From NCBI GenBank assembly GCA_033721415.1, contig JAWWAH010000003.1:1-35994 (forward strand): 35,994 nt of DNA. Direction: 5' to 3'. A model generated the notes under the pieces. It did not search any database. It was not told the origin of the DNA and saw only the letters and a list, made by a program, of their open reading frames with translations. Shown in pieces: positions 5,686 to 33,449 of this stretch. This stretch comes from Candidatus Spechtbacterales bacterium. GTDB lineage: Bacteria; Patescibacteriota; Minisyncoccia; Spechtbacterales; 2-12-FULL-38-22. The position numbers and the translations under genes were made by a program. Every line of letters starts with the position of its first letter. The first letter of the stretch is position 1.

Positions 5686-5955
5686 ATGTTCATACATTTA
5701 AATAGTTTATTATCCAGAAAAACTTTTAAATTTGACAACGCAGAATTACCTCAATTATGGAAAGAGGCAGTAAAAAATGTACGACCAGGAGCAGAGAAGT
5801 ATACCAAATATAAAGATATTAGAAATAATATATTGTATGTTAGTGCTGATGATCCTGTATGGATAAAAGAACTTAGTGGTTATCAAGAAGACTTAAAAAA
5901 ACACATTAATAAAAAAAGAAGCGAACCTATATATTCTATAAAAATATCTCTCTAA
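5686..5955 (+). CDS. dciA: DciA / DUF721 helicase-loading factor
   Basis: W..AV...AEKYT....RNNILYV...DPVW..EL pattern of DUF721; located after dnaN. Confidence 0.7.
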   Translation: MFIHLNSLLSRKTFKFDNAELPQLWKEAVKNVRPGAEKYTKYKDIRNNILYVSADDPVWIKELSGYQEDLKKHINKKRSEPIYSIKISL

Positions 5956-5998
5956 ACTAAAAATCCCAGATATCTGGGATTTTTAGTTTAGAGAGATA
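5945..5998. terminator. Perfect 54-bp palindrome / bidirectional terminator between convergent genes
   Basis: tatctctctaaactaaaaatcccagat|atctgggatttttagtttagagagata, 27-bp arms, no spacer. Confidence 0.8.
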
Positions 5999-21668: not shown

Positions 21669-22763
21669 ATGAAAATATATATAAAAAAACTAAAAGAAGC
21701 CCTAGAGCACCCTATAATATTTTTGCCGATTATTCTGCTTATACTCGCTTTTGGTGGGTTGTTTTATTTTGGAGAAATAACAGAAGTTTTAAGTAAAAAA
21801 GGTTTTTATTCGTTTGAGATTAATTCAGGCGAAGGTGGGGCGGGGAATATTTTAAATGAGCCACACCCTCTTACAGGAAAACGTTGTGGAAATAGCGAAA
21901 AAAGGCCTTTTGCGGTTATGATGCCCTCAGATCAAATTACACGCCCTCTTTCTGGAATAGCAAAAGCTGATCTTGTGGTAGAGATGCCAGTAACTCAGCC
22001 AGGCCAAGGCGGGATAAACAGAATGATGGCAGTCTTTGCATGTGAAGAGCCAGAAGAGATTGGCTCGGTTCGCTCCGCAAGAGATGATTTTATACCCCTA
22101 GCAGCCTCTTTCGATGCAATATACGCTCATTGGGGTGGTTCTCACTTCGCGTTAGACGAATTAAAGAAGGGCATAATCCCTGATATAGATGCACTTGTAA
22201 ACCCATTTAGCACATATTATAGAAAGCAGTGGATAGCACGACCACACAATGGATTCACATCTTTTAATCGTCTTCTAAACACAAGCGAAAAGCTAGGTTT
22301 TAGAACAGAGAATAAGTTTGGTGGATATCCTCATATTGAAGGATCTTCTAGTGTTGGGGACAATCCTACAACAATTTCTGTTGCATACCCAGGATCTTAT
22401 CGTGTGAGTTATGTTTACAACCCCGAAAACAACTCTTATATGCGTTGGCGTGGAGGAAGTCCCGAAGTGGATGCGCTAGATAACAAGCAGGTAGAATCCA
22501 AAATACTCATAGTTATGAAAACTAATACTCGCCACCTAGAAGGGCAGTATAATGACGTTGATGTCTTTGGGTCTGGCCAGGCTTATGTTTTTCAAAATGG
22601 CGAATTAATAAGAGCTAGTTGGCAAAAAGAGTATGGAGATATAGATGGTAAATTATACTTCTATAACAAAAAAGACAAAGAAATAAAATTTGTAGCAGGC
22701 AACATGTGGATACATGTTGTAGACAACTCAACCCCTATATATTGGGGAGGGGAGAGGCTGTAA
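21669..22763 (+). CDS. DUF3048 (YerB-like) membrane-anchored protein
   Basis: PLTG, RPFAVM, RPLSGI..ADLVVE, GSVRSAR, AHWGGS, PHN motifs. Confidence 0.88.
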   Translation: MKIYIKKLKEALEHPIIFLPIILLILAFGGLFYFGEITEVLSKKGFYSFEINSGEGGAGNILNEPHPLTGKRCGNSEKRPFAVMMPSDQITRPLSGIAKADLVVEMPVTQPGQGGINRMMAVFACEEPEEIGSVRSARDDFIPLAASFDAIYAHWGGSHFALDELKKGIIPDIDALVNPFSTYYRKQWIARPHNGFTSFNRLLNTSEKLGFRTENKFGGYPHIEGSSSVGDNPTTISVAYPGSYRVSYVYNPENNSYMRWRGGSPEVDALDNKQVESKILIVMKTNTRHLEGQYNDVDVFGSGQAYVFQNGELIRASWQKEYGDIDGKLYFYNKKDKEIKFVAGNMWIHVVDNSTPIYWGGERL

Positions 22764-22797
22764 GAAGGTGTTATATTGTTTTTGCTTAAAACAACCT

Positions 22798-22829
22798 AAA
22801 CCAGCCCAACCACAACTGGGCCGGTTTTT
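22798..22829 (+). terminator. Probable intrinsic terminator
   Basis: aaacc-a-gccca..tgggc-c-ggttttt. Confidence 0.45.
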
Positions 22830-22846
22830 AATGTTAAAATAGAAGC

Positions 22847-23863
22847 ATGATAAATTTTGAATCACAATATGAAAAAGTGGTAGGCGGGGAGTCTAAAGAA
22901 GAAAGAAAAGAGGCCGAAAAAAGAATACAAGACAGACTGGAGAGACTCGATACAGAAGCAGTGGGAGAGTTTGAAGTAGACAAAACAGAACAAGAAGAGA
23001 AAATTATAGAAACTTCAGAAGATGCTGTTGATGAGATGGTTGAGAGATGGGGAGGGGAACCAAAAAAACTACCGCCACATAAGATACATATTTTGGAACC
23101 GGAAGCAGTTGGGCAACTTACCGCAGGGAAACTTGCCAGTGCTTTTTATGCGCCGGGCGCTCAATTTGTGGGCATAGAAAGAAGAGGTTCCGGTGTAGAC
23201 TTTGCCACAAGTGTTGCGCATGAATTTTTTCACGCAAAATCATATAAAGCAGCTCAGGTTATGGAAGACGGCAAAGACGCTCCTTGGCGCTCCGGTGTTC
23301 AAGTCTATGAGTTTAAAGATAAGAGGGTTGCCTATTTCGGTGCACTAGAAGAAGCAATAGTAGGTGAGTCCACGAGGTTGTTTTTTGAAGAGAAGGTAAA
23401 AAATAACCCCATGTTTAAAGACGAAGTAGAGGCCGTAGAAGAAATTAAAAAATGGTTAAGAAGCTCGGCTTCAGAAAGGAAGTTGTCCGATGAGCAAAAG
23501 AAGGCGGTAGACATATTCATAGAAGAACTATATTCTATCCCCGATGCTATAAAGGTTGCCGAAGTTTTGGTGGGTGATAAGGATGATGAATATAAGCGCG
23601 GCTTTTTAGAAGGAGCATTTTCTAAGATCAATGAAGAGAGAACAGATATAATGGCAGAGCGATACGAAGAGAGGCACAAGCTGTATGAGTTAATGGATCA
23701 AATAATAGAAAACTCAAGCTTTGAAACCAGAGAAGAGCTCTTTGAAGAATTTGCAAAAGCAAACTTCAGTGGCTCGTTATTGCCACTAGCGAAAATAGTA
23801 GAAAACGCACTCGGAAAAGGCGCCTTTAGAAGAGTTGCAGAAGATTTTAAAGAGGAGTTATAG
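22847..23863 (+). CDS. Acidic hypothetical protein with zincin HExxH motif
   Basis: VAHEFFH followed by downstream LEEA; Glu-rich. Confidence 0.7.
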   Translation: MINFESQYEKVVGGESKEERKEAEKRIQDRLERLDTEAVGEFEVDKTEQEEKIIETSEDAVDEMVERWGGEPKKLPPHKIHILEPEAVGQLTAGKLASAFYAPGAQFVGIERRGSGVDFATSVAHEFFHAKSYKAAQVMEDGKDAPWRSGVQVYEFKDKRVAYFGALEEAIVGESTRLFFEEKVKNNPMFKDEVEAVEEIKKWLRSSASERKLSDEQKKAVDIFIEELYSIPDAIKVAEVLVGDKDDEYKRGFLEGAFSKINEERTDIMAERYEERHKLYELMDQIIENSSFETREELFEEFAKANFSGSLLPLAKIVENALGKGAFRRVAEDFKEEL

Positions 23864-23881
23864 TGCACCCCTGGCTCCACA

Positions 23882-23911
23882 TTGACAAAAATACCATTAA
23901 GTGGTATTTTT
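23882..23911 (+). promoter_or_regulatory. Sigma70 promoter overlapped by an inverted-repeat operator
   Basis: TTGACA-17bp-TATTTT with TGn; IR aaaaatacca-ttaag-tggtattttt (23887-23911). Confidence 0.7.
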
Positions 23912-23956
23912 TACATACCTATTTGTTTTAACATAAGCACACTGAAAGGAGGGTAA

Positions 23957-24199
23957 ATGTTTAAAGTACTGAAAGATGAACCGCCTAGGCCGCCTAGGCC
24001 TGGAGACTTTGTAAAAACCGCATCCGGAGAAACCCACAGGGTTTCTAAGACCGAAGAAAAAAATGGAGATTGGTTGGTTTATTTTCAGGGTGGAGGTTCT
24101 GCATACTGGAAGCGTGATAATATCACCACAATATCTCGCGACGAGAATTTTCAGGAACATGTAGAGGACCTTTGCAATAGATATGGGATTGAGAAATAA
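23957..24199 (+). CDS. Small hypothetical protein (monocistronic)
   Basis: Own promoter, strong SD aaaggaggg, own terminator. Confidence 0.8.
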   Translation: MFKVLKDEPPRPPRPGDFVKTASGETHRVSKTEEKNGDWLVYFQGGGSAYWKRDNITTISRDENFQEHVEDLCNRYGIEK

Positions 24200-24207
24200 G
24201 TTCTTTT

Positions 24208-24231
24208 AAAGCCCTCAGTTGAGGGCTTTTT
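24208..24231 (+). terminator. Intrinsic terminator
   Basis: aaagccctca-gt-tgagggcttttt. Confidence 0.8.
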
Positions 24232-24271
24232 ATGTGGGATTATTTAAAAAATAGGCTAATGTTATAATATA

Positions 24272-24309
24272 TTGACAACAATAAGATAAAGATGGTATAA
24301 TATTGTTGT
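24272..24309 (+). promoter_or_regulatory. Sigma70 promoter of the TrmB gene with flanking inverted repeat
   Basis: TTGACA-18bp-TATAAT with TGn; IR acaacaata (24275-83) / tattgttgt (24301-09). Confidence 0.7.
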
Positions 24310-24335
24310 AAAAAGTAAACAACTAAAATAAAATC

Positions 24336-25097
24336 ATGAGCAATCAAATAAAAACGCTAGCATCTAAATTAGAACCCCTTGGCTTAAGCGACAAACAAGC
24401 CCGCGTTTATGTCGCTACTTTGTTTTTGGGTTCTGCTCCGGTGCAACAAATAGCAAAACAAGCAGACATTAATCGTCCAACAGCATATGTAATATTAGAG
24501 GAACTTGAAAACATGGGCTTGGTATCTGAGTCTACTGATGCTAAAAAAACAGTTTATATCGCAGAAGATCCAGAAGCGATTACTCGTTGGCTTGAGAAGA
24601 AAGAGATTGAGATAGAAGCAAAGAAGAAAAGTGCAAAAAAATTAATTAGTGACCTAGAGGGTATTAAGAGGGAAGAGGTGTCTCAGGCTCCCATGGTTCG
24701 TTTTTATCGTGGGAAAGAAGGTATAAAGTCTATATTAGCTGAATCTGCAAGAAAATCTAAACCGAAAACAGAGGTTTATGGTTTCACAAACTTGGACGAG
24801 GTAAAGAAATTGTTTCCTGGATATTTCAAAAGCGCACCAGAAAGAAGGCTTCCTAAAGATATTTCAAGCAAGGTTCTATATTCTTCTCTAGAAAAAATAG
24901 ATTTAGAAAACAAAGAAGCCTTACGTCGAGCACGGAGGGTTGATAACCCAATAGAGGCTGATATTAGCATTTACGAAGATAGAGCAACACTTTTAACTTA
25001 TGCAGGAGAAAATTCTTCCGGAATCGTTATAGAGAGTCCAGAAATAGTAAAATCTCTAAGGCAGTTGTTTGAATTAGCCTGGGAAAGCAAAGAATAA
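24336..25097 (+). CDS. TrmB-family transcriptional regulator
   Basis: LGLSDKQARVYVATL..IAKQADINRPTAYVILEELENMGLV wHTH; C-terminal effector-binding domain. Confidence 0.88.
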   Translation: MSNQIKTLASKLEPLGLSDKQARVYVATLFLGSAPVQQIAKQADINRPTAYVILEELENMGLVSESTDAKKTVYIAEDPEAITRWLEKKEIEIEAKKKSAKKLISDLEGIKREEVSQAPMVRFYRGKEGIKSILAESARKSKPKTEVYGFTNLDEVKKLFPGYFKSAPERRLPKDISSKVLYSSLEKIDLENKEALRRARRVDNPIEADISIYEDRATLLTYAGENSSGIVIESPEIVKSLRQLFELAWESKE

Positions 25098-25114
25098 AAA
25101 TAAGTCAATTAATA

Positions 25115-25143
25115 TTGACAAAAATAATATAAAGTGTTAGTAT
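25115..25143 (+). promoter_or_regulatory. Sigma70 promoter, island unit A
   Basis: TTGACA-17bp-TAGTAT with TGn; predicted start near 25150 coincides with the first helix. Confidence 0.8.
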
Positions 25144-25149
25144 ATTTAT

Positions 25150-25520
25150 GCCACACAGAACAAGAGAGAACACTGAAAGTACCTTTCAAAGGTGCTCTAA
25201 GGTTCAGAGTGTGGCGCTCACCGAAAGGACGAAAGATGGGTGGAGGTTAACAATATATTAGGCTAGAAAAATGACACCCTGCTCGGGTATAAAGAGCATC
25301 AACAAGACAGGTGCCACAATCTGATTCTCGGCACCAAACAACTTACAGTGTCCTAAAAGAAAGCCGTGGTGAATTTTTGCAAAAAAAGAGGCAAACATTC
25401 ACTAGGCCAAGATCCAAAAGGACCAACAGCACTTTTTTCCCCGTATACACCAGGTATGCGGGGAATTGTTATTTTAGGACTGGAAACTATATCTATAGCT
25501 GTGGGTATAGTTTCCGGGGC
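25150..25520 (+). ncRNA. Unknown structured ncRNA, unit A (~370 nt)
   Basis: Helices gccacac/gtgtggc (25150/25215), tgctc/gagca, ggtgcc/ggcacc, tggtgaat..tttgc/gcaaa..attcacta, gtcctaaaa/ttttaggac, 12-bp 25437-25465, 17-bp 25480-25517 with + strand G-U pairs; no credible ORF. Confidence 0.7.
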
Positions 25521-25619
25521 AATACAATATTTGTATAAATAATATTACAAAAATATAGCTATAAAATCCCTTAAAATAAAGGAAAGTATGACTAAAAAAC
25601 AATACTCTGTTATTAATAC

Positions 25620-25648
25620 TTGACAAAAAAATATCAATATGCTAATAT
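25620..25648 (+). promoter_or_regulatory. Sigma70 promoter, island unit B
   Basis: TTGACA-17bp-TAATAT with TGn; predicted start near 25655. Confidence 0.8.
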
Positions 25649-25823
25649 AACAGCAAGTTGAAATGAGGCGAGGAAAAATTCTCGCCCAAAAGCAAAGATT
25701 GCTTGGGAGCCATATACTGTTTAATTAAATTAATCAAAACAGAAAAAATGGATTACCCAATCAAAACAATAATGTAAACAGGCGAGAAGGCCTGTCTTTT
25801 TTATGCCTGAATTTCGGCAGGCC

Positions 25824-25948
25824 AACGGTTCCCCGATGGATTCGGGGCTGACGAGCCCAAAGTTTGATCTGTTTGAGGTAGTGCTCATTTAAATAACCTT
25901 CCTCATTTCAACTTTAATAACAGATTAAAGCTACAGGGCGAAACCGTT
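25824..25948 (+). ncRNA. Type III hammerhead ribozyme
   Basis: Stem III aacgg/ccgtt, GUU triplet (cut after 25830), stem I ccccga/tcgggg with loop UGGAU, core CUGACGA (25848-54), stem II gccc/gggc with conserved G10.1-C11.1, GAAA (25940-43). Stem II extended by tttgatctgtt/aacagattaaa. Confidence 0.85.
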
Positions 25949-26164
25949 AAAGAAAAACTAGGGCTTGGGAAACTATAAGTTTTTAATCGCGCCACAAAGC
26001 AATAAAAAAGGCGGACAGGTTATAAAACTTGGGGAGGCTCTCTCCCCGAAGCTCGCGTCTAAGTATATGTGATCAATTTTAATACTAAAGTTCGGACGCG
26101 GGTTATGGGGAGAGAGCAACCGAAGCTCCTCTTTTCATATATAGATATGCCGAAAGGAAAACCA

Positions 26165-26356
26165 ATGGCAAAGAAGGGCCAGGCACAGAAGCACGTTTGC
26201 CACCAGCACCCCTCTGTTCGTACGTTCCAGACACCGACCTACGAACCGGGTGACACGTTCGAGACCGCGAGGGGTAAGTCACTTTCGTTCCGTGCCCGTG
26301 TGGCTCGGCTCAAGCCACAGCCCAGGGGTTACACGAGCAAGGTGAAGCAAGGGTAG
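26165..26356 (+). CDS. Small basic protein (63 aa) embedded in unit B RNA
   Basis: SD aaagga before ATG 26165; MAKKGQAQKHVCHQHPSVRTF...KVKQG; GC-rich codons like the other island ORFs. Confidence 0.7.
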   Translation: MAKKGQAQKHVCHQHPSVRTFQTPTYEPGDTFETARGKSLSFRARVARLKPQPRGYTSKVKQG

Positions 26357-27005
26357 TTCTTCGCCCCTCATCCTTACAAACAAGGGTGAGGGGCAACCCA
26401 ACTTAATATAATATTTCGCACCACGATCTTAGCCGGTAATGCCGCTTGAGATCGCGGTGCGAGCTTAACTGGCGCGACAAAGCCCCAAGCCTGGGCATAA
26501 AAGGTTAGGGGTTCCTCTACCCCGCGATGAAGGACTAGGAGGCCGCCGGATAGGGAGTTCCTTATCCCTGGGACCAAAAGGTGCGGGGAGTAGGAGCCCG
26601 CTATCTTAGTTCACCCTGTTGTCTGCAAGGTCCGCAGGCAGAGGATGTGGTCTTGAGCTCGCACCGCAACAACTTAATGATATATGCAAATAATATCGCA
26701 TATAAGTAGTTGTTCTTTTTAATCCCGGCTATCATACGATAGCCGGCCCGACCCAAGATTACTATGCTAAGCGTAGTTATAGCGACTTTGGGCCGGGTGC
26801 AACATCAAAACAGGAGAGAACACCTTGGAGCAGTTCATTAGTTAGCAAAAACAACCCTTTCCTTCTGTGTGAAGGGGAGGGGAACTGGGTTCTAGGTTCT
26901 AGTTTATAATTTTGCTAGGTTTGTTACCTACCTTTCTAGACAAAGGCAACACTAAAACAAAAATAAACAAACCATTAAAAAGTGTCAAAAACACCGAACA
27001 AACCC

Positions 27006-27034
27006 TTGACAAGTAAATAATAATATACTATAAT
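27006..27034 (+). promoter_or_regulatory. Perfect consensus sigma70 promoter, island unit C
   Basis: TTGACA-17bp-TATAAT with A-rich upstream sequence. Confidence 0.9.
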
Positions 27035-27084
27035 ATAGGGACTAACAGTTAGTAATAAACTGTTTAAAGTTCTTAACACTGTAC

Positions 27085-27183
27085 TTTCGAGCATCGAGAA
27101 GGAGAGGGCGGGCATAAAATACTATATAGGCTCTTGACCCTCTCATTCTCGGTGTTCGAAAACTCATTCCTAAAGGAGGTGAG
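27085..27183 (+). promoter_or_regulatory. Structured 5' leader of unit C
   Basis: 16-bp helix 27085-100/27146-61 with G-U pairs plus gagaggg/ccctctc; hairpin ctcattcc/ggaggtgag sequesters the SD. Confidence 0.7.
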
Positions 27184-27186
27184 AAG

Positions 27187-27390
27187 ATGGTAGCAAGCAT
27201 CAAGCCAAGGTGCCTTTGTGGCGCCGAGGTTGGCTTCAAGGGAGACCGTTGCATCATGTGCGGAACCGACGAGGAGAACATCCAGATCGATCTGTACGAG
27301 ATCCTCGATTCGCCCCAGCCAACCACTGGGTTCTCGATTGTCCCAGACATCGAGTTCCCAACATCCGAGGCTTTGGAGCTCGGCCTTTGA
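27187..27390 (+). CDS. Small Zn-ribbon protein with acidic tail (67 aa)
   Basis: SD aaggaggtga; CLC..CIMC motif; Asp/Glu-rich C-terminus. Confidence 0.75.
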   Translation: MVASIKPRCLCGAEVGFKGDRCIMCGTDEENIQIDLYEILDSPQPTTGFSIVPDIEFPTSEALELGL

Positions 27391-27575
27391 AACAGGCTCC
27401 ATCAAGACTTTCTTACCCCTAGGGTGAGGCCCGGAAACAACCGAGGAAAAATTTAGTCTATCAGCAGGCTATCAAGCCCATTCGGGCAGCTGAGGGCACA
27501 AAGCACTTTGTGCCCTTCCTTCTAAGGTCTCGACTACTCGAGGTTTTAGAAGGGAGAGAAACCCTTCCTAAAGAA
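27391..27575 (+). ncRNA. Structured intercistronic RNA
   Basis: Consecutive helices ttaccc/gggtga, tcagc/gctga enclosing gccc/gggc, agggcacaaa/tttgtgccct, ccttctaa..tcga/tcga..ttagaagg. Confidence 0.55.
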
Positions 27576-27678
27576 GGCCAAGCGGCGAAGTCTGGTCGCA
27601 TCGTGGGGTATACACCTTCGCTCTGTATATTCTCAAAACGTGTCAAAAGCGTTTCGGGTTCAAATCCCGGCTTGGCCA
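27576..27678 (+). tRNA. tRNA-like element (class II shape) with non-canonical, enlarged anticodon arm; identity unassignable
   Basis: Acceptor ggccaag/cttggcc + A, D-loop with GG (agtctggt), long variable arm aaacgt/gcgttt, T arm tcggg-TTCAAAT-cccgg; anticodon region ggggtataca-ccttcgctc-tgtatattct. Confidence 0.7.
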
Positions 27679-27718
27679 CGAACAGTACCTATCAATCACA
27701 CACAAAAGGAGGGCTCAC

Positions 27719-28165
27719 ATGAGCCGCCGATTCAAGAAGGGCCCGACACTCGAGGCGATCGAGGAGCTCGGGATCACCCGGCGCACAAAGCCGGGCGAGG
27801 TCGATCCTGCGACCTTCATCAAGGGGGCGGCTCTCCTGTGGCAGTCCGAGTTCGCTTGGGCTGTCGACAACGAGGAGACCCGTTGGGCGTATCGAGAACT
27901 TGAGCGCCTTCTGTACGCGGCTGTTTCAGCCACGAGTCAGGACGAGCTCACAGAGGCCATCAAGCCGAAGCACAGCCTCGCTGCTCTGCGGTGCGCCACC
28001 TCGCGCATCAACAAGGCTGAGGTTAATGTTCTCGAGGAAGAGGCTCGTCGTGAAGCCTCTTCCAACAACTCTTCTCAGTCTCTTCGTGAGTCCCGCGCCC
28101 GCAAGGAGCGCAAGCGTGCTCGCGATCGCGAGATCCGTGCCCGCATGAAGGGCAAGAGCCAGTAG
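27719..28165 (+). CDS. Hypothetical helical protein with Arg-rich C-terminus (148 aa)
   Basis: SD aaggaggg; ends RESRARKERKRARDREIRARMKGKSQ; consistent codon bias. Confidence 0.8.
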   Translation: MSRRFKKGPTLEAIEELGITRRTKPGEVDPATFIKGAALLWQSEFAWAVDNEETRWAYRELERLLYAAVSATSQDELTEAIKPKHSLAALRCATSRINKAEVNVLEEEARREASSNNSSQSLRESRARKERKRARDREIRARMKGKSQ

Positions 28166-28241
28166 ACCTTCGGGGGCAGGCCGTGAAGACACCAGCCTGC
28201 CCCTGACCAACCATAAGCGAAACCCTTGAAAGGGGGTGAAT

Positions 28242-28418
28242 ATGTCGAAGAAGGTCGAAGCTAAGGAGTTCGAGATCGTAAAGACGATCTCGACGGGACG
28301 CCACCGCCGCACCGAGACCGCTCAGGTCGTTGCGCGCATCAATGGTCGTCGCGTCACGCGCCATGTCCGAAAGGACAACGGTGTGTGGAAGGACCTCCAA
28401 GGGAACACCTACAGCTGA
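28242..28418 (+). CDS. Small basic protein (58 aa)
   Basis: SD aagggggtga before ATG 28242; MSKKVEAKEFEIVKTISTGRHRRTETAQVVARINGRRVTRHVRKDNGVWKDLQGNTYS. Confidence 0.75.
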   Translation: MSKKVEAKEFEIVKTISTGRHRRTETAQVVARINGRRVTRHVRKDNGVWKDLQGNTYS

Positions 28419-28770
28419 AAAGCTGATTAGGTATCCTGGCGCGGAGCTCCGAAAAGCCGCGCAAAAACAAGGAGCAAAAGTTCCGGTCGTATAAAACACG
28501 AAGAAGGGCCGGAAAGGCGAAAAAGGGAGCGCCTAAAAAATCTCTCCAGGGAACGCAGCACTCGCGTTCCCGCTCTTACAGTATTCTCGAAGATTTCGAG
28601 GATAGCGTAGGCGCAGAAATGGAAATAAAATGCTAAAGCGAGCATTTGGAAGACTGTTTGCTTTTGCTGGAATCATGGCAATGGCAAACATGGAAGCCAA
28701 CGAATGGAAAAACAAGCACCTATAATAAATACCCGCCACAAGCTACATAAAGGCTTTTTGGCGGGTATTA
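28412..28770 (+). ncRNA. Structured 3' RNA domain of unit C with two candidate H-type pseudoknots and a terminal hairpin
   Basis: cagct-GAAA-agctg; PK 28439-75; PK 28515-46; gggaacgc/gcgttccc; tattctcgaa/ttcgaggata; final aatacccgcca/tggcgggtatt (28728-69). Confidence 0.6.
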
Positions 28771-28820
28771 AAAATTAATAAACATTATACAAGATAAAAA
28801 ACATATAATATAGATATCTC

Positions 28821-28855
28821 TTGAAAAATAGTGTGCCATATGGCATACTATTTTT
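28821..28855 (+). promoter_or_regulatory. Probable promoter covered by a 32-bp near-perfect palindrome
   Basis: TTGAAA-17bp-CATACT with TGn; aaaaatagtgtgccat|atggcatactattttt (one mismatch). Confidence 0.6.
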
Positions 28856-28878
28856 AGTTATTTTAAAGGAGGTGGTAC

Positions 28879-29373
28879 TTGAACATCGATCCAAATCGTC
28901 TTTTCAACGGAAAGTTGATACTGGCCAACAATAAAGAAATTCCAAATTATATTACTCATGATGAAATAATAGCGATTACCTTTGCGTTTCTTAAAGATAA
29001 AGGATATCCATTAAGTAATAGTTTGCGTCAGTTATCTATATTTTTTATTCCTGAAACTCGATATGGAAAAGATGGAATAGATCGTTTTTTACCAAAAATA
29101 TTTAAGTGGCGCACAAGAGACAGCACTAGTGGGAATTATCTTTCTTTAGCACTTAGCATAAAACTATTTGTACCACATCTACAGAATAGAAGAGATTTTA
29201 TAAAAACATTATTGCATGAATTAGATCACGTAGTCTGGTTTTTAGAGCATTGCGGCAGGTTTGATCGCTCAAAAAGATATAGAGCAAGACCGCACGAAAA
29301 GCGTGCGCGAAAAACTTCTCGCAAATGGTACAGAAAAGCAAAAAAGATAGCAAGCAGAAATAAGCCACAGTAA
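28879..29373 (+). CDS. Basic HExxH zinc metallopeptidase-like protein (SprT/ImmA-like zincin)
   Basis: SD aaaggaggtgg + TTG; TLLHELDH...PHEKRAR. Confidence 0.75.
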   Translation: MNIDPNRLFNGKLILANNKEIPNYITHDEIIAITFAFLKDKGYPLSNSLRQLSIFFIPETRYGKDGIDRFLPKIFKWRTRDSTSGNYLSLALSIKLFVPHLQNRRDFIKTLLHELDHVVWFLEHCGRFDRSKRYRARPHEKRARKTSRKWYRKAKKIASRNKPQ

Positions 29374-29382
29374 ATAGAATAT

Positions 29383-29409
29383 AAAGCATGTCGCATGACA
29401 TGCTTTTTT
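29383..29409 (+). terminator. Intrinsic terminator
   Basis: aaagcatgtc-gcat-gacatgctttttt. Confidence 0.8.
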
Positions 29410-29462
29410 AAATATTGCTAAAATGTTAAAATATACTCAATTAATATAAAAAATATTCAGCT

Positions 29463-30413
29463 ATGTTAATAGTGCTCCACGGAAAAAACACCTTTCGCTC
29501 TCGTAGGAAGTTGCTTGAGCTTATAGATGTTTATCGCAAAAAACACGAAGGCGGATTTTCATATGAACGAGCACAGGCAGAGAACATGACACTCAACGAG
29601 CTTAGCAGTATAGTGCAGAGCGCTTCTTTGTTCGATAATTCTAAGTTGGTTGTATTAGAAAATCTACTAAACAATAAAAAACTAAAAAAGGATGTTGTTG
29701 AATGGGAGAGTCTTCCCGATATTGCAAAGCAAAAGGATAACTTGCTTATACTTTTTGAAGAGTCATCTGTCGGCAAGGATAAAGATTATAAAGATATTTT
29801 AAAAAATGCTTCAAAAACCCAAGAGTTTAAAGAATTATCAACTCGAGATTCTGTAAAATGGTTTAAGTCTTATTTTGAAAATCAAGACAAAGACATAGAT
29901 ATCTCAAACATAAACATTGTTGTTTCTGCGGCTCAGGGTGATATGTGGAGGGCTTATAATGATCTTGAAAAAATATACGCATATAATAAAGGCAGTAAAC
30001 TAAGCCAGAAAGAAATCTCTGCTTTAAAAATAGGCTCTGAAGAAGCCCAAATATTTCCAACTATAGACGATGTTTTTTATGGAAATATAGATAAAGCAAT
30101 ATACAAAATACAACTTCACTGGAAAGAGGATTACTTTCCTCAGCAGTTTTTCCATATGCTAGAGCGACAAATAAAACTAATTGCATTAATAAAAGAACAA
30201 AAAGAAAAAGGGGTAGTGCAGAGGGCGATGGCAAAAAATTTATCGCTCCATCCATTTGTTGTTAAGAAAACATATAATTTGTGTGATAAATACTCTTGGC
30301 AAAAGATAGAAAATATTTATCAACGAATAGAGTCTCTAGAGGTTAAAAGCAAAACAGGGCAATTACAGCCAAGATTGGCATGTGAATTATTGAGCGTTGC
30401 TATAGCTAGCTAA
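29463..30413 (+). CDS. holA: DNA polymerase III delta subunit
   Basis: MLIVLHGKN, SLF...KLVVLEN, GDMW..NDLEK, LHPFVVKK, KSKTG; convergent with rpsT as is common. Confidence 0.88.
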   Translation: MLIVLHGKNTFRSRRKLLELIDVYRKKHEGGFSYERAQAENMTLNELSSIVQSASLFDNSKLVVLENLLNNKKLKKDVVEWESLPDIAKQKDNLLILFEESSVGKDKDYKDILKNASKTQEFKELSTRDSVKWFKSYFENQDKDIDISNINIVVSAAQGDMWRAYNDLEKIYAYNKGSKLSQKEISALKIGSEEAQIFPTIDDVFYGNIDKAIYKIQLHWKEDYFPQQFFHMLERQIKLIALIKEQKEKGVVQRAMAKNLSLHPFVVKKTYNLCDKYSWQKIENIYQRIESLEVKSKTGQLQPRLACELLSVAIAS

Positions 30414-30415
30414 AA

Positions 30416-30445
30416 TAAAAAGCCCCGAGTACTCGGGGCTTTTTA
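30416..30445. terminator. Bidirectional terminator (perfect 30-bp palindrome)
   Basis: taaaaagccccgagt|actcggggcttttta. Confidence 0.85.
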
Positions 30446-30455
30446 AAAGTTTGAG

Positions 30456-30725
30456 TTATTTTTCCTCTTTCGGATTTAGACTCCTTGCTAAAGATGATTT
30501 TCTTCTAGAAGCAGTGTTTTTATGAAGAATACCCTTCTTAACAGACTTATCAATAGCCTTGTAAATGGTTGGCAATAGTTTTTTTGCTTCATCTATCTTT
30601 CCACTGGTTACTAAATCTGAAAATTCGCGTGTAAGTTTTTTGACGCGATTTTTATAACTTCTGTTTAACTTTTCTCGTCTTGCGCTTTGTCGAAGCGCCT
30701 TTTTTGCGTTTTGTAAATTTGGCAT
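30456..30725 (-). CDS. rpsT: 30S ribosomal protein S20
   Basis: AKKALRQS..N, IDKSVKKGILHKNTASRRKSSL. Confidence 0.97.
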   Translation of the reverse strand: MPNLQNAKKALRQSARREKLNRSYKNRVKKLTREFSDLVTSGKIDEAKKLLPTIYKAIDKSVKKGILHKNTASRRKSSLARSLNPKEEK

Positions 30726-30788
30726 ATATCTATTTATTCACGTTTTCAAATACTATCATGATTTTTTTAATTCATCAAGGGTCTTGCC

Positions 30789-31442
30789 CTATATCCAGTC
30801 TCTGAAACTGGATAGAGGGCGGGCATCCTCCAGAGAGTACTCTCCAATAGAGGTTCTTTTTAATTCGCTAACGTAAGCCCCTGTTTTAAGCTCTCTACCT
30901 ATGTCTCGCGCCAAAGCCCTAATATAAGTGCCACTTGAAACTTTTACCCTTATCTTTACCTCGGGCCAACTATAACTAAGTAGTTCTAGTTTATAAATAG
31001 TAACCTTTTTTGGTTTTAATTTAACCTCTTTTCCTTCTCTTGCTAGCTCATAAGCTTTTTTACCTTTTATTTTTTTAGCTGAATACGTGGAGGGAATTTG
31101 CTCCATCTCTCCTGTAAATTTTTCGAGCACCGCTTGAAGCTCTTGCTCGGTAACCGGCACTGCATTATCGACGGATGTATGCTGTGATTCCACTGGTTCT
31201 CCAGTTATGTCTCCTGTATCTCTTTCTTCGCCCAAAATAAAAGTTGCTTCATATTCTTTATCCATTCCTATAAAGGTGCTTTGTTGTTTGGTTTCTGGTC
31301 GCCCTACCAAAATAATAAGAAGCCCTTCTGCAAAAGGATCTAGGGTTCCTGCGTGACCCACTTTTTTAATGCCCGTAATTTTACGAACTTCGTCTACTAT
31401 ATCGTGGCTTGTTGGCCCCTTTGGTTTGTTAATTAAAAGCAT
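30789..31442 (-). CDS. truB: tRNA pseudouridine(55) synthase
   Basis: KPKGPTSHD, GHAGTLDPFAEGLL, SSGTYIRALARD. Confidence 0.97.
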   Translation of the reverse strand: MLLINKPKGPTSHDIVDEVRKITGIKKVGHAGTLDPFAEGLLIILVGRPETKQQSTFIGMDKEYEATFILGEERDTGDITGEPVESQHTSVDNAVPVTEQELQAVLEKFTGEMEQIPSTYSAKKIKGKKAYELAREGKEVKLKPKKVTIYKLELLSYSWPEVKIRVKVSSGTYIRALARDIGRELKTGAYVSELKRTSIGEYSLEDARPLSSFRDWI

Positions 31443-31445
31443 TAC

Positions 31446-33449
31446 CTATGAATTATCTTTTAACTTGTTTATCTTATCACGTAATTTAGCAGCTTTTTCA
31501 AAATCAAGATTTTTTGCTGCTTTTTTCATTTCTTTTTCTAACTCTTTTATTGCTAAGTTTTCATACTCTTTGAGCTCTTCATCTTTTGCCTCTTCTAACT
31601 CTAACTCTTTGGGCATTTTGTAGATTTTCTTCTCTATAGACATCGGTGTTATACCATGTTTTTTATTATATCTTTCTTGAATTTTCCTTCTGCGCTCCGT
31701 TTCTTTTATTGTTGCTTTCATTGAATCGGTTATCTTATCTGCATACATAATTGCCCTACCTTCAACATGTCTTGCCGCTCTTCCTATTGTTTGAAGTAAC
31801 GTAGTTTCGTTTCTAAGAAAACCCTCCTTATCTGCGTCGAATATTATAACAAGCGAAACTTCAGGAAAGTCTAGCCCTTCTCTTAGTAGGTTTATACCAA
31901 CCAAGACATCATATTCTCCTTCGCGCAGTTTTTGCATAATGGGCAATCGTTTAAGTGTGTGTATTTCTGAGTGTATGTATTGAACTTTTATTCCTTCGGT
32001 GTTTAAAAATTCAGCAATTTCTTCGGCAAGACGCTTTGTTATTGTTACAACAAGTGTACGTTGCCCCTTTTTATTTTGTTTTTCTATTTCCTCTATAGCG
32101 GTTTGCATCTGGTTTTTTGTTGGGCGTATTTCTATTTTTGGATCTAGTAACCCAGTTGGCCTTACTATTTGCTCTACTATGTTTTCTTTGCCAGCTTTTT
32201 CTGTTTCATAGTCTCCGGGTGTTGCAGAAACGTATACTGCTTTTTCTATTCTCTTGTTAAACTCATCAAATTTAAGTGGCCTGTTGTCGACGGCGGAGGG
32301 AAGGCGAAAGCCATGCTGTATTAATGTTCTCTTTCGTGCTCTGTCTCCTGCATGCATCCCTCGTATCTGAGGAAGCGTCATATGAGATTCATCTATCACA
32401 GTTAGAAAATCGTTGTCAGCGTTTTTCATATAGTCAACCAGGGTAAATGGGGGAGAGCCTGGCTTGCGGAAATCTAGGTGTCTTGAGTAGTTTTCAATTC
32501 CGGGGCAGTAGCCCATTTGTTCTATTAGCTCAAGATCATAATTTGTTTTCTGTTCTAATCTGTATGCTTCAATGTCCCGCCCTCTTTCTTTTAGGTTTTT
32601 TAATCTTGTGTGTAGTTCAGCTTGGATATTTTTAGTTGCAATCTTTAATTTATTTTCTGGAGTTATCCAAAAATTTGCTGGAAATATTTTTACCCCTTCT
32701 TTTTCTCCTTTTTTTCCGTATACTCCGCTAGGCGATATATCTTCGTTTTGTGCAATATTTGGTTCGGCTACAACTAGAGTTGCTATTTTTTCTTTATCAC
32801 CTTGACCCTCAAGCTCAATAACTATTTTTGCCTCCCCGGTGGGAGGATACACTTCTATTAGGTTACCCTTGGCACGGAAGCTTCCTGCCGATGGGTCTAT
32901 ATCGTTTCTGCCAAACCCCATACTAACTAGAGTGTTTAAAAGGTCCCTTCTTGTGATGGGCTGGTCTTTTTTTAAATCAAGGCTTACTCCTTGGTAATCT
33001 TCCGGAGAACCGATACCGTATATACAAGAAACCGAAGCCACAACCAAAACATCTTTTCTTGTAAGTAGTGCTTGTACTGCGGAGTGTCGCATCTTGTCTA
33101 TTTTTTTATTAACGCTTGCATCTTTTGCTATGTAAGTATCATTTTGAGGTATGTAAGCCTCAGGCTGGTAGTAGTCATAATAGCTTACAAAATAATGAAC
33201 AGCGTTTTCAGGGAAAAACTCTTTGAATTCCTGGTATAACTGCCATGCTAAAGTTTTGTTGTGAGATATAACAAGGGTTGGCTTATTGATATCTGCTATT
33301 GTATTTGCCATTGTAAAAGTTTTACCCGATCCTGTTACACCATGAAGAACCTGGTGCTTTTCACCGTCTTTTAACCCTCTTACAATATTTTCTATAGCCT
33401 TCGGCTGGTCACCTCTAGGTTCTAGTTTTGTGGTTAGTTTAAAATCCAT
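31446..33449 (-). CDS. uvrB: Excinuclease ABC subunit B
   Basis: GDQPKAI, GVTGSGKT, YYDYYQPEAY, DESH, QTIGRAAR, C-terminal UVR domain; start taken at MDFKL (33449). Confidence 0.98.
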   Translation of the reverse strand: MDFKLTTKLEPRGDQPKAIENIVRGLKDGEKHQVLHGVTGSGKTFTMANTIADINKPTLVISHNKTLAWQLYQEFKEFFPENAVHYFVSYYDYYQPEAYIPQNDTYIAKDASVNKKIDKMRHSAVQALLTRKDVLVVASVSCIYGIGSPEDYQGVSLDLKKDQPITRRDLLNTLVSMGFGRNDIDPSAGSFRAKGNLIEVYPPTGEAKIVIELEGQGDKEKIATLVVAEPNIAQNEDISPSGVYGKKGEKEGVKIFPANFWITPENKLKIATKNIQAELHTRLKNLKERGRDIEAYRLEQKTNYDLELIEQMGYCPGIENYSRHLDFRKPGSPPFTLVDYMKNADNDFLTVIDESHMTLPQIRGMHAGDRARKRTLIQHGFRLPSAVDNRPLKFDEFNKRIEKAVYVSATPGDYETEKAGKENIVEQIVRPTGLLDPKIEIRPTKNQMQTAIEEIEKQNKKGQRTLVVTITKRLAEEIAEFLNTEGIKVQYIHSEIHTLKRLPIMQKLREGEYDVLVGINLLREGLDFPEVSLVIIFDADKEGFLRNETTLLQTIGRAARHVEGRAIMYADKITDSMKATIKETERRRKIQERYNKKHGITPMSIEKKIYKMPKELELEEAKDEELKEYENLAIKELEKEMKKAAKNLDFEKAAKLRDKINKLKDNS

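Follow-up and report, generated by a model that had tools for sequence, protein, structure and literature searches.

A strain-specific island of structured RNA lies in the tiny genome of this Candidatus Spechtbacterales bacterium, and the hairpin that follows the island's third promoter is a member of a previously undescribed, conserved RNA family. We put at roughly even odds (about 0.5) the view that this part of the window (the whole 35,994-nucleotide stretch of DNA that was analysed) represents an additional, enlarged copy of an expression module peculiar to the lineage, whose structured RNA elements would delimit and process the messages of small proteins. Covariation shows the hairpin family to be conserved, and two other elements, a domain at 26415-26710 and a tRNA mimic, have relatives; that the island is transcribed, that a candidate ribozyme and the tRNA mimic are cleavage sites, and that they act in stability or translation is what we infer from the sequence. 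Features are listed in Table 1.

Table 1. Features of the island and of the insertion that contains it (positions in the window)
Feature	Position	Strand	Basis or characteristics
Accessory insertion	22764-29462	.	6.7 kb, by family synteny
HExxH protein	22847-23863		within insertion
TrmB-like HTH regulator	24336-25097		within insertion
Promoter-like P1	25115-25143	+	TTGACA, 17 bp, TAGTAT; TG before -10 hexamer; 10/12
Unit 1 structured RNA, ~330 nt	25150-25475	+	z -5.4 on +, -3.4 on -
Hydrophobic ORF, 28 aa	25456-25542		ORF list
Promoter-like P2	25620-25648	+	TTGACA, 17 bp, TAATAT; TG before -10 hexamer; 10/12
Unit 2 leader RNA, ~150 nt	25655-25803	+	z -3.6 on +, -4.8 on -
Candidate type III hammerhead	25824-25948	+	descriptor match, three helices
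Long hairpin just upstream of ORF4	26035-26119	+	fold prediction
ORF4, 63 aa, pI 10.8	26165-26356	+	weak SD-like AAGGA upstream
Structured domain, ~300 nt	26415-26710	+	paralogue C17:17697-18010
Promoter-like site divergent from P3	26960-26988	-	10/12
Promoter-like P3	27006-27034	+	TTGACA, 17 bp, TATAAT; 12/12
Leader hairpin, R1 family member	27078-27168	+	103.6 bits
ORF-A, 67 aa, pI 4.1	27187-27390	+	four Cys (CxC...CxxC); strong SD
tRNA-like element	27576-27677	+	fold prediction, model R2
ORF-B, 148 aa, pI 9.9	27719-28165	+	homologues and structure model
ORF-C, 58 aa, pI 11	28242-28418	+	predicted small all-beta protein
Structured 3' region, ~six hairpins	28419-28775	+	z -7.5 on +, -4.8 on -
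SprT-like HExxH protein	28879-29373		within insertion

An earlier, sequence-only reading had marked out a mostly non-coding unit of ~3.7 kb (25115-28770). Its RNA-rich character is confirmed, approximately 73% of the DNA between the TrmB-like and SprT-like genes being non-coding, but synteny gives it a larger true extent. In all five relatives examined the homologue of 21669-22763 lies 0-850 bp from holA, and the corresponding short gaps in three relatives hold unrelated small ORFs instead; 22764-29462, which also contains an 80-aa ORF, is 6.7 kb of inserted DNA that separates two core genes at a site of variable content. With a GC content of 53-63% the island stands well above the 38% of the genome, and no relatives of its DNA were found among 40 related genomes. 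Logan contigs from run X1, whose source is probably the sample that gave the window, span both GC boundaries (24630-27984 and 27896-32000). A soil run contains a second organism in which the flanking genes are 82-92% identical and chiefly non-coding blocks of the island are kept at an identity of at least 80%, including matches to 26419-26468, 26642-26668 and 28479 to ~28570; five of the six island indels listed fall in predicted loops or linkers, and one soil contig joins 27154 to 27593 through 33 other letters, so placing the hairpin directly next to the tRNA mimic. The idea that the structures are unique to this interval was abandoned, the hairpin and the 300-nt domain belonging to a module at a locus downstream of transketolase in relatives.

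Folding z-scores were computed against dinucleotide-preserving shuffles, and composition is thereby controlled. On the + strand of 25100-28700, z is below -3 in 23 of 49 overlapping 150-nt windows, compared with only 9 of 145 in the rest of the contig. The assertion that nearly all of the non-coding sequence forms helices is right as to an excess of folding but overstated in its reach, since z stays above -3 in windows that start at 25775-25925 and 26750-26975. The proposed + strand bias is upheld in 12 of 17 segments; against the module, the + strand folds no better than the - strand in units 1 and 2, the hammerhead region and the tRNA mimic. All three TTGACA promoters with 17-bp spacing that had been proposed match the consensus. 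The 6.7-kb insertion, at 0.7% of genome length, holds 6 of the 67 exact-TTGACA promoter matches in the genome; 12/12 sites elsewhere stand upstream of tmRNA (C22) and of GC-rich islands, and an 11/12 site upstream of the C4 tRNA array. A terminator scan places a terminator-like hairpin (25437-25465) and a T-rich tail at the end of unit 1, for which Rfam gave no match at E <= 0.1, and unit 2 has a terminator-like hairpin (25778-25795) with a T run that also reads as a - strand terminator.

No Rfam family reaches its cut-off in the island. Identity with the large ornate RNAs GOLLD, ROOL, OLE and HEARO was rejected, there being no match even at E <= 10, in agreement with the initial failure to recognise any of them. 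The island is like these RNAs in combining structured, GC-rich RNA with an AT-rich genome, a nearby tRNA-like sequence and accessory DNA; unlike them, its structure is broken up, with promoters, terminators and ORFs separating elements of 90-330 nt. The proposal of an undescribed RNA-centred system survives as undescribed RNA structure under selection, but not as a single large RNA, the island being a mosaic of separate, cis-acting elements that each stand ahead of a small ORF.

The hairpin family (model R1) has 17 copies in 7 of the 16 genomes of the order, this genome included, and in a sample of the class 3 of 151 genomes were positive, all from that order. Across the copies 94.1% of 374 cells are paired, compared with 77.2% in shuffles, none of 500 of which reaches the observed value, and with 45-53% in slid controls; covariation is strong, compensatory changes on both sides occurring in 14 of 22 pairs. 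The upper stem pairs a purine arm containing an invariant AAGGAG with a CYCYCUC pyrimidine arm; its changes are transitions that leave purines 5' and pyrimidines 3', and a U.G pair is retained in 13 of 17 copies, features consistent with an RNA read on the + strand. Each of the three copies in this genome lies 30-72 nt downstream of a 12/12 promoter, and in relatives the hairpins follow tandem consensus promoters and stand between small GC-rich ORFs. Distance to the ORF varies from 11 to ~240 nt, and genome G005 has three tandem copies without an intervening ORF, so that a role in transcription or RNA stability explains the pattern no worse than a leader for each gene would. Against the module, searches with two models failed to detect RNase III, the enzyme that usually acts on long hairpins, in this 96% complete genome. 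The early region of phage T7 carries intercistronic processing hairpins, while HK022 put and rRNA-operon leaders act on polymerase; like these, R1 elements are conserved hairpins of ~30 bp that follow strong, sometimes tandem promoters between short cistrons. They differ in that RNase III was not detected in this genome and in being limited to one order, and we know of no T7, HK022 put or rRNA-leader element in which the upper stem pairs an SD-like purine tract with a pyrimidine tract.

The ~300-nt domain aligns locally with its paralogue at a score of 115, the maximum in 100 shuffles being 65. Within it 26454-26465 has two alternative partners, 26416-26427 or 26656-26667, and 26340-26480 has a z of -8.0. 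The long hairpin upstream of ORF4 has a pyrimidine-rich 5' arm and a purine-rich 3' arm (z -7.4 for 25950-26130), and the structured 3' region ends with a 10-bp hairpin at 28732-28769.

The tRNA-like fold that had been claimed is real, though the element is not a tRNA. Its acceptor stem is 7 bp long, the D arm carries GG, and a T stem of 5 bp closes a UUCAAAU loop; in place of the anticodon arm there is a stem of 10 bp capped by a 9-nt loop, together with an extra arm, and the tail is ACGAA, without CCA. As a true tRNA it was rejected (22.1 bits, no ARAGORN call). G005 holds a second non-tRNA copy in the same orientation, ~1.1 kb downstream of its hairpins and ahead of an SD and a 78-aa basic ORF, with two compensated acceptor pairs and an identical ACGAA tail. 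Model R2 scores the island and G005 copies at 140 and 94 bits; its 12 remaining matches (22-34 bits) are all ordinary tRNAs by ARAGORN, eight of them Leu. The distribution so far comprises two genomes of one family and metagenome contigs, and a functionless tRNA-Leu copy in decay could also account for the mimic. tRNA punctuation and mascRNA, at the 3' end of MALAT1, are tRNA-like processing signals, and the acceptor/T-arm minihelix is the part recognised by RNase P and by the enzymes of the tRNA 3' end; this genome encodes an RNase P RNA. The island element resembles these signals in its acceptor/T-arm minihelix, canonical T loop and D-loop GG, and in its place within a longer putative transcript just 5' of the next gene. 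It differs from them in being bacterial, in its origin from a tRNA of class II (Leu-like) and in having neither an anticodon arm nor an encoded CCA, and its cleavage is predicted.

Upstream of ORF4, the hammerhead that had been proposed has a complete type III core but falls short of the Rfam threshold: RF00008 aligns exactly at the candidate but gives it 17.9 bits, the cut-off being 48.5, a deficit attributable to stem II, which carries an inserted 75-nt hairpin at a place occupied by 6 nt in the model, and the whole-genome Rfam search does not list it. Its parts are a 6-bp stem III, a 6-bp stem I with a 5-nt loop, the core CUGACGA, a 4-bp stem II and GAAA; stems I and II are closed and stem III open, as in type III hammerheads, and C3-A9, G12-A14, the A15.1-U16.1 pair and a non-G H17 agree with RF00008. 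Cleavage is predicted after U25830, at a GUU triplet in place of the usual GUC; this triplet and the insertion are atypical, and the tertiary loop contacts of hammerheads were not identified. The descriptor, the thresholds of which were chosen after the candidate was known, has a single match in 1.86 Mb, one match in 30 genome shuffles and none in 3000 island shuffles. The core is absent from the blocks matched by the soil relative. On its sequence, the candidate is likely to be a self-cutting ribozyme. Prophage hammerheads are likewise found between transcription units of an accessory island, and their suggested role is to divide long transcripts into mRNAs the length of single genes (PMC3088659); the present candidate differs from them in being a single copy and not a flanking pair.

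The four short ORFs are as described earlier, three of them basic (pI 9.9-11.0) and one acidic with the cysteines of a possible Zn-ribbon. ORF-B is a conserved protein, with homologues P0002 (53% identity) and P0003 (43%) and 45 invariant columns; its model is a helical bundle with a 64-residue, Lys/Arg-rich basic C-terminal helix (pLDDT 90), and no fold matched at E <= 0.001. ORF-C, modelled from a single sequence (pLDDT 82.6), likewise has no fold match. ORF4 (GC by codon position 0.58/0.50/0.72), the stretch of which shows no excess structure (z -1.3), matched nothing in the family libraries Pfam, PHROGs, NCBIfam and PADLOC. This result, the failure to find homologues of ORF-A or ORF-C, and a GC3 of 0.71-0.75 in all four ORFs in a 38% GC genome count against the module.

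Under the module reading, consensus sigma-70-type promoters would drive GC-rich, heavily folded transcripts carrying very small genes, with a separate structured RNA element ahead of every one. ORF-A would stand behind the conserved hairpin, the upper stem of which would hide the AAGGAG; ORF4 behind the hammerhead, cutting the RNA at its predicted site; and ORF-B and ORF-C behind the tRNA-Leu-like minihelix, where RNase P may act 5' of the fold and a nuclease of tRNA 3' ends may cut behind the discriminator base. Such elements would fix and protect the ends of the mRNAs and might also gate their translation; a long primary transcript would in this way yield separate, stable messages that encode small basic or membrane proteins.

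It is possible, although we think it unlikely, that the island comes instead from a phage or another mobile element, as its remnant or satellite, with the ribozyme, tRNA-like piece, strong early-type promoters and small ORFs as leftovers or a working part. An insertion of 6.7 kb where relatives hold different small ORFs, its high GC content, and its HTH regulator and two HExxH proteins would suit such an origin, as would the prophage genes that hammerheads often flank (PMC3088659). The ORF-A cassette lies within 22-nt imperfect direct repeats (27158-27179 and 27556-27577) and is missing from the soil relative, and the nearest Atlas cluster to ORF-B, at a score of 0.91 and with 156 features in common, has mainly viral members, though this is no more than a lead. 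Yet neither integrase, transposase nor RT, as stated at the outset, nor any replication or structural gene occurs among nine proteins scanned with Pfam or seven with PHROGs, NCBIfam and PADLOC, and the direct repeats listed include no flanking att-like pair. There is no DNA match beyond a 32-nt stretch in 50,697 phage records and none at all in 72,556 plasmids; viral contigs hold no relative of ORF-B, and 14 viral stretches with the hairpin pattern all fail to fit R1 (best 14.7 bits). The hairpin and 300-nt domain are, moreover, chromosomal features of the lineage at the syntenic transketolase locus. Somewhat less probable again is an RNA-centred ribonucleoprotein system in which basic ORF4, ORF-B and ORF-C bind the adjacent structured RNAs. 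Three basic ORFs in an island that is mostly structured RNA, the Lys/Arg-rich helix of ORF-B, conserved along with its structured flanks, and the fixed purine/pyrimidine polarity of the upper hairpin stem, as for a protein-binding site, are in its favour; but hairpins in relatives adjoin unrelated small ORFs, many encoding membrane peptides, a contig scan of 16 genomes found no ORF-B relative in the order's other genomes, the RNA is a mosaic, and no fold or family ties any of the proteins to RNA binding.

We regard as distinctly improbable a toxin-antitoxin or defence cassette controlled by small RNAs, in which units 1 and 2 are regulatory RNAs and folded leaders silence toxic small proteins. 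The two promoter-to-terminator units resemble stand-alone small RNA genes, the SD of ORF-B can pair in the minimum-energy fold with a CCCUUCCU tract that precedes the tRNA mimic, small hydrophobic peptides are encoded by modules in relatives and on C47 and C41, and a 28-aa hydrophobic ORF lies in the island at 25456-25542; against this, PADLOC matched none of seven proteins, the predicted folds and the listed repeats show no antisense overlap or repeat array like those of type I or III systems, and the four GC-rich ORFs are hydrophilic (gravy -1.1 to 0.1). That the island has no function, as an assembly chimera or as decaying foreign DNA with hairpins born of composition, would explain the sharp change in GC at its flanks, three ORFs of four without homologues and the lack of DNA relatives in 40 genomes, but is scarcely credible: the z-scores control for composition, contigs bridge both GC boundaries (run X1, probably the same sample), the soil organism retains the non-coding blocks, and the hairpin family covaries.

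The sequence-only reading had seen ornate RNAs in the stretch between a TrmB-like regulator gene (24336-25097) and an SprT-like HExxH gene (28879-29373); we find no single ornate RNA there but a mosaic of separate elements. Two stand-alone promoter-to-terminator RNAs (units 1 and 2, 25150-25475 and 25655-25803) are followed by a probable ribozyme, ORF4 and a 300-nt domain, and then by a promoter, a hairpin, ORF-A, a tRNA mimic, ORF-B, ORF-C and a structured tail. As that reading had remarked, no known ornate RNA is recognisable: GOLLD, ROOL, OLE and HEARO were absent at E ≤ 10, and at E ≤ 2 to 10 in sub-searches, and the cmscan comparison it had called for, run on the whole window, returned no Rfam 15 family at gathering score. 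RNase P RNA and tmRNA were rejected as the identity of the island, both genes being elsewhere in the genome (the former on contig C2). The window is one entire contig (C3; 35,994 bases) of a 928-kb assembly (G000; 65 contigs, GC 37.8%), and its GC content climbs to 0.53-0.63 over about 26050-28600.

Three TTGACA promoters with 17-bp spacing had been claimed, and a promoter scan places sites at 25115 (10/12), 25620 (10/12) and 27006 (12/12). Between 24000 and 30000 there are 17 promoter-like sites, against 10.2 ± 3.6 in shuffles; genome-wide, exact TTGACA with a good -10 hexamer occurs 67 times, which is no excess over block-shuffled genomes (47-68), and six of these 67 sites fall within a 6.7-kb insertion (22764-29462) that contains the island. 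Outside the island, 12/12 sites lie upstream of tmRNA (C22) and of other GC-rich islands, and the C4 tRNA array is preceded by an 11/12 site. An extended ATATTGACAA.AATA motif that reaches past the -35 hexamer is present at the promoters at 23881 (80-aa ORF), 24271 (TrmB-like gene) and 25114 (unit 1), and may be a common operator.

Folding energies, scored against dinucleotide-preserving shuffles, set the island apart, with z < -3 on the + strand in 23 of 49 overlapping windows (25100-28700) compared with 9 of 145 in the remainder of the contig, and z of -4 to -8 on that strand for most non-coding segments. The preference for the + strand that had been described applies to 12 of 17 segments but fails for unit 2, the hammerhead region, 26130-26345, the tRNA mimic and ORF-C. 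The top folding signals outside the island are at 5941-6090 (z -8.4 on +, -9.7 on -) and 881-1030 (-6.4, + only). Unit 1 ends in terminator-like hairpins overlapped by a small ORF of 28 hydrophobic residues (25456-25542, +), whose ATG is inside a 58-aa ORF (25366-25542, GC3 0.24) and which is reminiscent of the small membrane peptides in relatives' modules.

The best supported element is the leader hairpin at 27078-27168, downstream of the 27006 promoter. Two paralogues occur in G000 (C47:6551-6640 and C17:17618-17702), each of the three copies lying 30-72 nt after a 12/12 promoter, and a covariance model built from these copies (R1) scores the island hairpin at 103.6 bits. R1 detects the motif in 5 of the 7 remaining genomes of the family and in one of eight from the order's other two families; among 151 sampled genomes of the class the motif appears in three, all from that order. 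In an independent MAFFT alignment of 17 copies, the RNAalifold consensus contains 22 pairs, 14 of which have changed on both sides; 94.1% of 374 cells are paired. The corresponding figure for 500 shuffles is 77.2%, and not one shuffle attains any of the five measures; sliding the partner columns by 1-3 reduces pairing to 45-53%. The stem is 22-26 bp long and its upper part always carries AAGGAG-type purines 5' and CYCYCUC pyrimidines 3'. Substitutions in this part are exclusively transitions, in contrast to the lower stem, where pairs flip freely; 13 of the 17 copies retain a U.G pair. The 27078-27168 hairpin has both arms together with the covariation that define the family. A hairpin pattern had fourteen viral matches, none of which fits R1. 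The compensatory changes expected of the island RNAs are borne out for this hairpin, and among the island's elements statistical support from covariation is limited to it.

On this comparative evidence the leader hairpin is a new RNA motif with covariation, absent from Rfam 15, and the listings and abstracts of the literature on structured or noncoding RNA in CPR/Patescibacteria contain no description of the island elements. In relatives, the hairpins occur in threes, preceded by a single or tandem consensus promoter (12/12 in three genomes, 11/12 in two), and alternate with small GC-rich ORFs, of which several encode hydrophobic peptides. The arrays of two relatives (G005 and G002) and the C17 copy are all downstream of a transketolase gene; this locus is therefore ancestral and the window copy additional. 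The hairpin may influence translation, stabilise the RNA or keep the polymerase going. The RNase III models TIGR02191 and PF14622 had no match in G000, which at 96% completeness does not prove absence, and this counts against RNase III processing, the role that would first come to mind for a hairpin of 30 bp. No SSU rRNA is present in the same 96% complete assembly. The modules on C17 (17589-18400) and C47 (6506-7422) each comprise a 12/12 promoter, the leader hairpin and GC-rich structured sequence. On C17 some 750 nt are free of any coding-like ORF up to a terminator; C47 has two ORFs, one of 66 aa and one, for a membrane peptide, of 54 aa, and a GC-rich gene of 115 aa with its own divergent 12/12 promoter.

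The tRNA-like fold that had been claimed at 27576-27677 holds, and has a relative in G005, but tRNA identity does not. A 7-bp acceptor stem, a D arm with GG in the loop, a 5-bp T stem with a UUCAAAU loop (UUCRANU in general form) and an extra arm are all present; a 10-bp stem with a 9-nt loop occupies the place of the standard 5-bp anticodon stem and 7-nt loop, ARAGORN makes no call on the + strand, and no model of the Rfam tRNA clan scores higher than tRNA-Sec, at 22.1 bits (cut-off 47). The second mimic, which ARAGORN likewise does not call, has the same orientation as the G005 hairpin array and lies about 1.1 kb downstream of it; an SD and a basic ORF of 78 aa come next. The two mimics differ by two compensated acceptor pairs and share an identical tail after the discriminator. 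A model built on both (R2) scores its two members at 140 and 94 bits; its other matches, 12 sites in 16 genomes at 22-34 bits, are all normal tRNAs according to ARAGORN, eight of them Leu. A 22-nt pattern from the mimic had no match in viral or genome contigs. ARAGORN also reports a tRNA-Thr of 85 nt inside ORF-B (27739-27823, -), which is probably false since Rfam gives it no support. In another genome, G010, the tRNA-Sec model matches a sequence with an odd D arm on contig C4 (633-719, +; 34.1 bits, below cut-off); about 800 nt separate it from the leader hairpin of G010, and the two are on opposite strands.

The candidate hammerhead at 25824-25948 (+), which would be expected to cleave itself, is probably genuine. 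A type III descriptor permitting a stem II of up to 130 nt, with thresholds fixed after the candidate had been seen, selects this single site in both strands of the genome (1.86 Mb), with stems of 6, 4 and 6 bp; shuffle controls gave one match over 30 genomes and none over 3000 islands. The conserved type III core is C3 U4 G5 A6 N7 G8 A9, G12 A13 A14, an A15.1-U16.1 pair and a non-G H17, and here it is complete: CUGACGA at 25848-25854, GAA+A at 25940-25943, a U25829-A25943 pair and U25830 as H17. Three helices surround it, of which stem III is open and the other two end in loops, and the unconstrained minimum-energy fold yields the same three-way junction (z -3.0). In a 171-nt search the Rfam Hammerhead_3 model aligned at the same coordinates over positions 2-53 of 54 with all core bases matched, at 17.9 bits (E 0.16) against a gathering threshold of 48.5; the stem II region has 75 nt where the model has 6. 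The candidate was not listed in a 4.1-kb search or in a whole-genome search (E ≤ 1). Core, helices and above-chance occurrence support the earlier claim, but the Rfam score does not. The candidate ribozyme directly follows the terminator-like hairpin of unit 2, upstream of ORF4, and cleavage after U25830 would free the ORF4 message.

No type I or II hammerhead was found in the genome. Hammerhead matches in two sister-family genomes were set aside as uninformative for the island: one, in G011 (C59:10920-10974, -), scores 31.8 bits as type III and has an 11/12 promoter about 400 nt before it, with the variant core word CCGAUGA rather than CUGAUGA, and the other lies in a gene start. Among literature listings and abstracts there was nothing on hammerhead ribozymes in Patescibacteria, and combining hammerhead, tRNA-like and bacterial prophage yielded irrelevant work only.

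The 300-nt domain (26415-26710) aligns with C17:17697-18010; the score is 115, whereas 100 shuffles averaged 42 and did not exceed 65. Each copy contains a 12-nt segment with two alternative partners, one upstream and the other about 200 nt downstream. Its MAFFT alignment with the C17 paralogue was unreliable, so no model was built and no covariation is claimed; the domain is undetectable by sequence in relatives' loci, and C17 and C47 contain no paralogue of any other island segment. A soil metagenome run (X2) holds a related organism whose flanking genes are 82-92% identical. One of its contigs links 27154 to 27593 via 33 other letters, so that ORF-A is missing there, and goes on to match 27593-27679 and the sequence from 28479; further X2 contigs match 25631-25672, 25875-25915, 26419-26468, 26642-26668 and from 26927, with gaps counted as evidence of absence only where a contig joins across. 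Of six island indels listed relative to X2, predicted loops or linkers account for five, and the sixth is where a stem meets its loop. Logan contigs from X1, a run probably from the window's own sample, span both GC boundaries.

The four small GC-rich ORFs that had been reported, three of them basic, are upheld (see table), with high GC3, pI 9.9-11.0 in the basic three and four Cys in ORF-A. None belongs to a Pfam, PHROGs, NCBIfam or PADLOC family or has sequence similarity in the PDB. ORF-B alone within the island has homologues: an exhaustive search of 1.84 billion representatives found P0002 and P0003 (152 and 154 aa; 53% and 43% identity), encoded on Logan contigs of 1,282 and 10,888 nt. 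A word-seeded protein search returned only the query for ORF-B, ORF-C and ORF-A, and the scanned metagenome, genome and viral contigs contained no ORF-B relative. Two further matches, P0004 and P0005, were dropped because they cover only 26-28 residues of repeat proteins. ORF-B is predicted (pLDDT 90) to form a helical bundle with a 64-residue basic helix, and ORF-C a small beta protein. The fold searches suggested for the ORFs were fruitless: ORF-B had nothing at E ≤ 0.001 in PDB or BFVD, ORF-C was likewise without a match, and the Atlas offered none usable for ORF-C.

Small ORFs of the island (contig C3) and other GC-rich islands of the same genome
Feature	Position	Strand	GC3	pI	Remarks
ORF4	26165-26356	+	0.72	10.8	weak SD
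ORF-A	27187-27390	+	0.71	4.1	four Cys, good SD
ORF-B	27719-28165	+	0.73	9.9	good SD
ORF-C	28242-28418	+	0.75	11.0	good SD
GC-rich island	C8:18297-19445	-			consensus promoter in front
GC-rich island	C7:11471-12118	+			GC3-rich ORF without Pfam family
GC-rich island	C33:9161-9703	-			GC3-rich ORF without Pfam family
GC-rich island	C39:6138-6725	-			GC3-rich ORF without Pfam family
GC-rich island	C42:5516-6016	+			GC3-rich ORF without Pfam family
GC-rich island	C47:5947-6294	-			consensus promoter in front

Every small ORF is preceded by a folded element of its own kind, and in relatives these elements are again found, ahead of other small ORFs; hence, we interpret them as cis-acting devices, which would define, process, stabilise or gate small-protein messages as a lineage-specific module, with ribozyme cleavage, and RNase P cleavage at the mimic, as the presumed processing steps. 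The island might also be explained as part or remnant of a mobile element. By synteny with five of five relatives it is a portion of a larger insertion: the homologue of the gene at 21669-22763 is 0-850 bp from holA in 5/5 same-family genomes examined, and the same pair is separated by 6.7 kb in G000. The short gaps of three relatives carry unrelated small ORFs, indicating that the site is variable. In G006 (C5:11195-12043) this core-gene interval has a Cys-rich ORF of 94 aa and three hairpin repeats that resemble one another; in G005 it has two small ORFs and in G002 a 146-aa ORF.

Insertion at the site, the deviating composition, and the known association of hammerheads with prophages (PMC3088659) are the reasons why the mobile-element explanation keeps weight. 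However, neither mobility genes nor phage matches were found. The earlier claim of no integrase or transposase was sustained by family-library scans of proteins (Pfam, PHROGs, NCBIfam, PADLOC), no flanking repeats were seen, and the insertion lacks the combination of integrase or transposase, flanking repeats and phage genes that would mark an integrative element or prophage. Island DNA had matches of only 31-46 nt, at chance level, in 2 of 40 related genomes, one 32-nt match in two phage records, and none among plasmids.

Very little is known of gene expression and RNA biology in bacteria with such small genomes, which are mostly uncultured. The proposed devices comprise a covariation-backed motif, a candidate hammerhead with an unusual stem II (long stem II insertions may be shown in the supplementary figures of PMC3088659) and, in an mRNA leader, an element derived from a tRNA; each is associated with small genes set apart by their composition. 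If they process or gate mRNAs, they would provide a handle on abundant small-protein production in such organisms, and they offer testable sites for ribozyme and RNase P work. A broader proposal, which we hold to be improbable, is that the order has its own route of small-protein expression, with genes on GC-rich, hyper-structured transcripts punctuated by three unrelated devices, a self-cleaving hammerhead, a tRNA-derived minihelix and an SD-mimic hairpin of a new family, in modules that multiply and move within genomes (three copies in G000, one in a fresh insertion). On this proposal the hairpin might be a switch bound by the ribosome, the polymerase or a protein, and not just a passive stabiliser.

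GC-rich islands (0.5-0.68) occur at no fewer than six other places in G000, each with one ORF of GC3 0.57-0.74 and no Pfam family, and look like a recurrent, promoter-equipped class of orphan genes, not noise. A search of C29:1-2200 gave no Rfam match at gathering score; this region carries two copies (9-240, + and 611-840, +) of another GC-rich, hairpin-rich element, the third being at C24:1-192 (-). The C24 and C29 copies follow 12/12 promoters, and two of them are near-identical.
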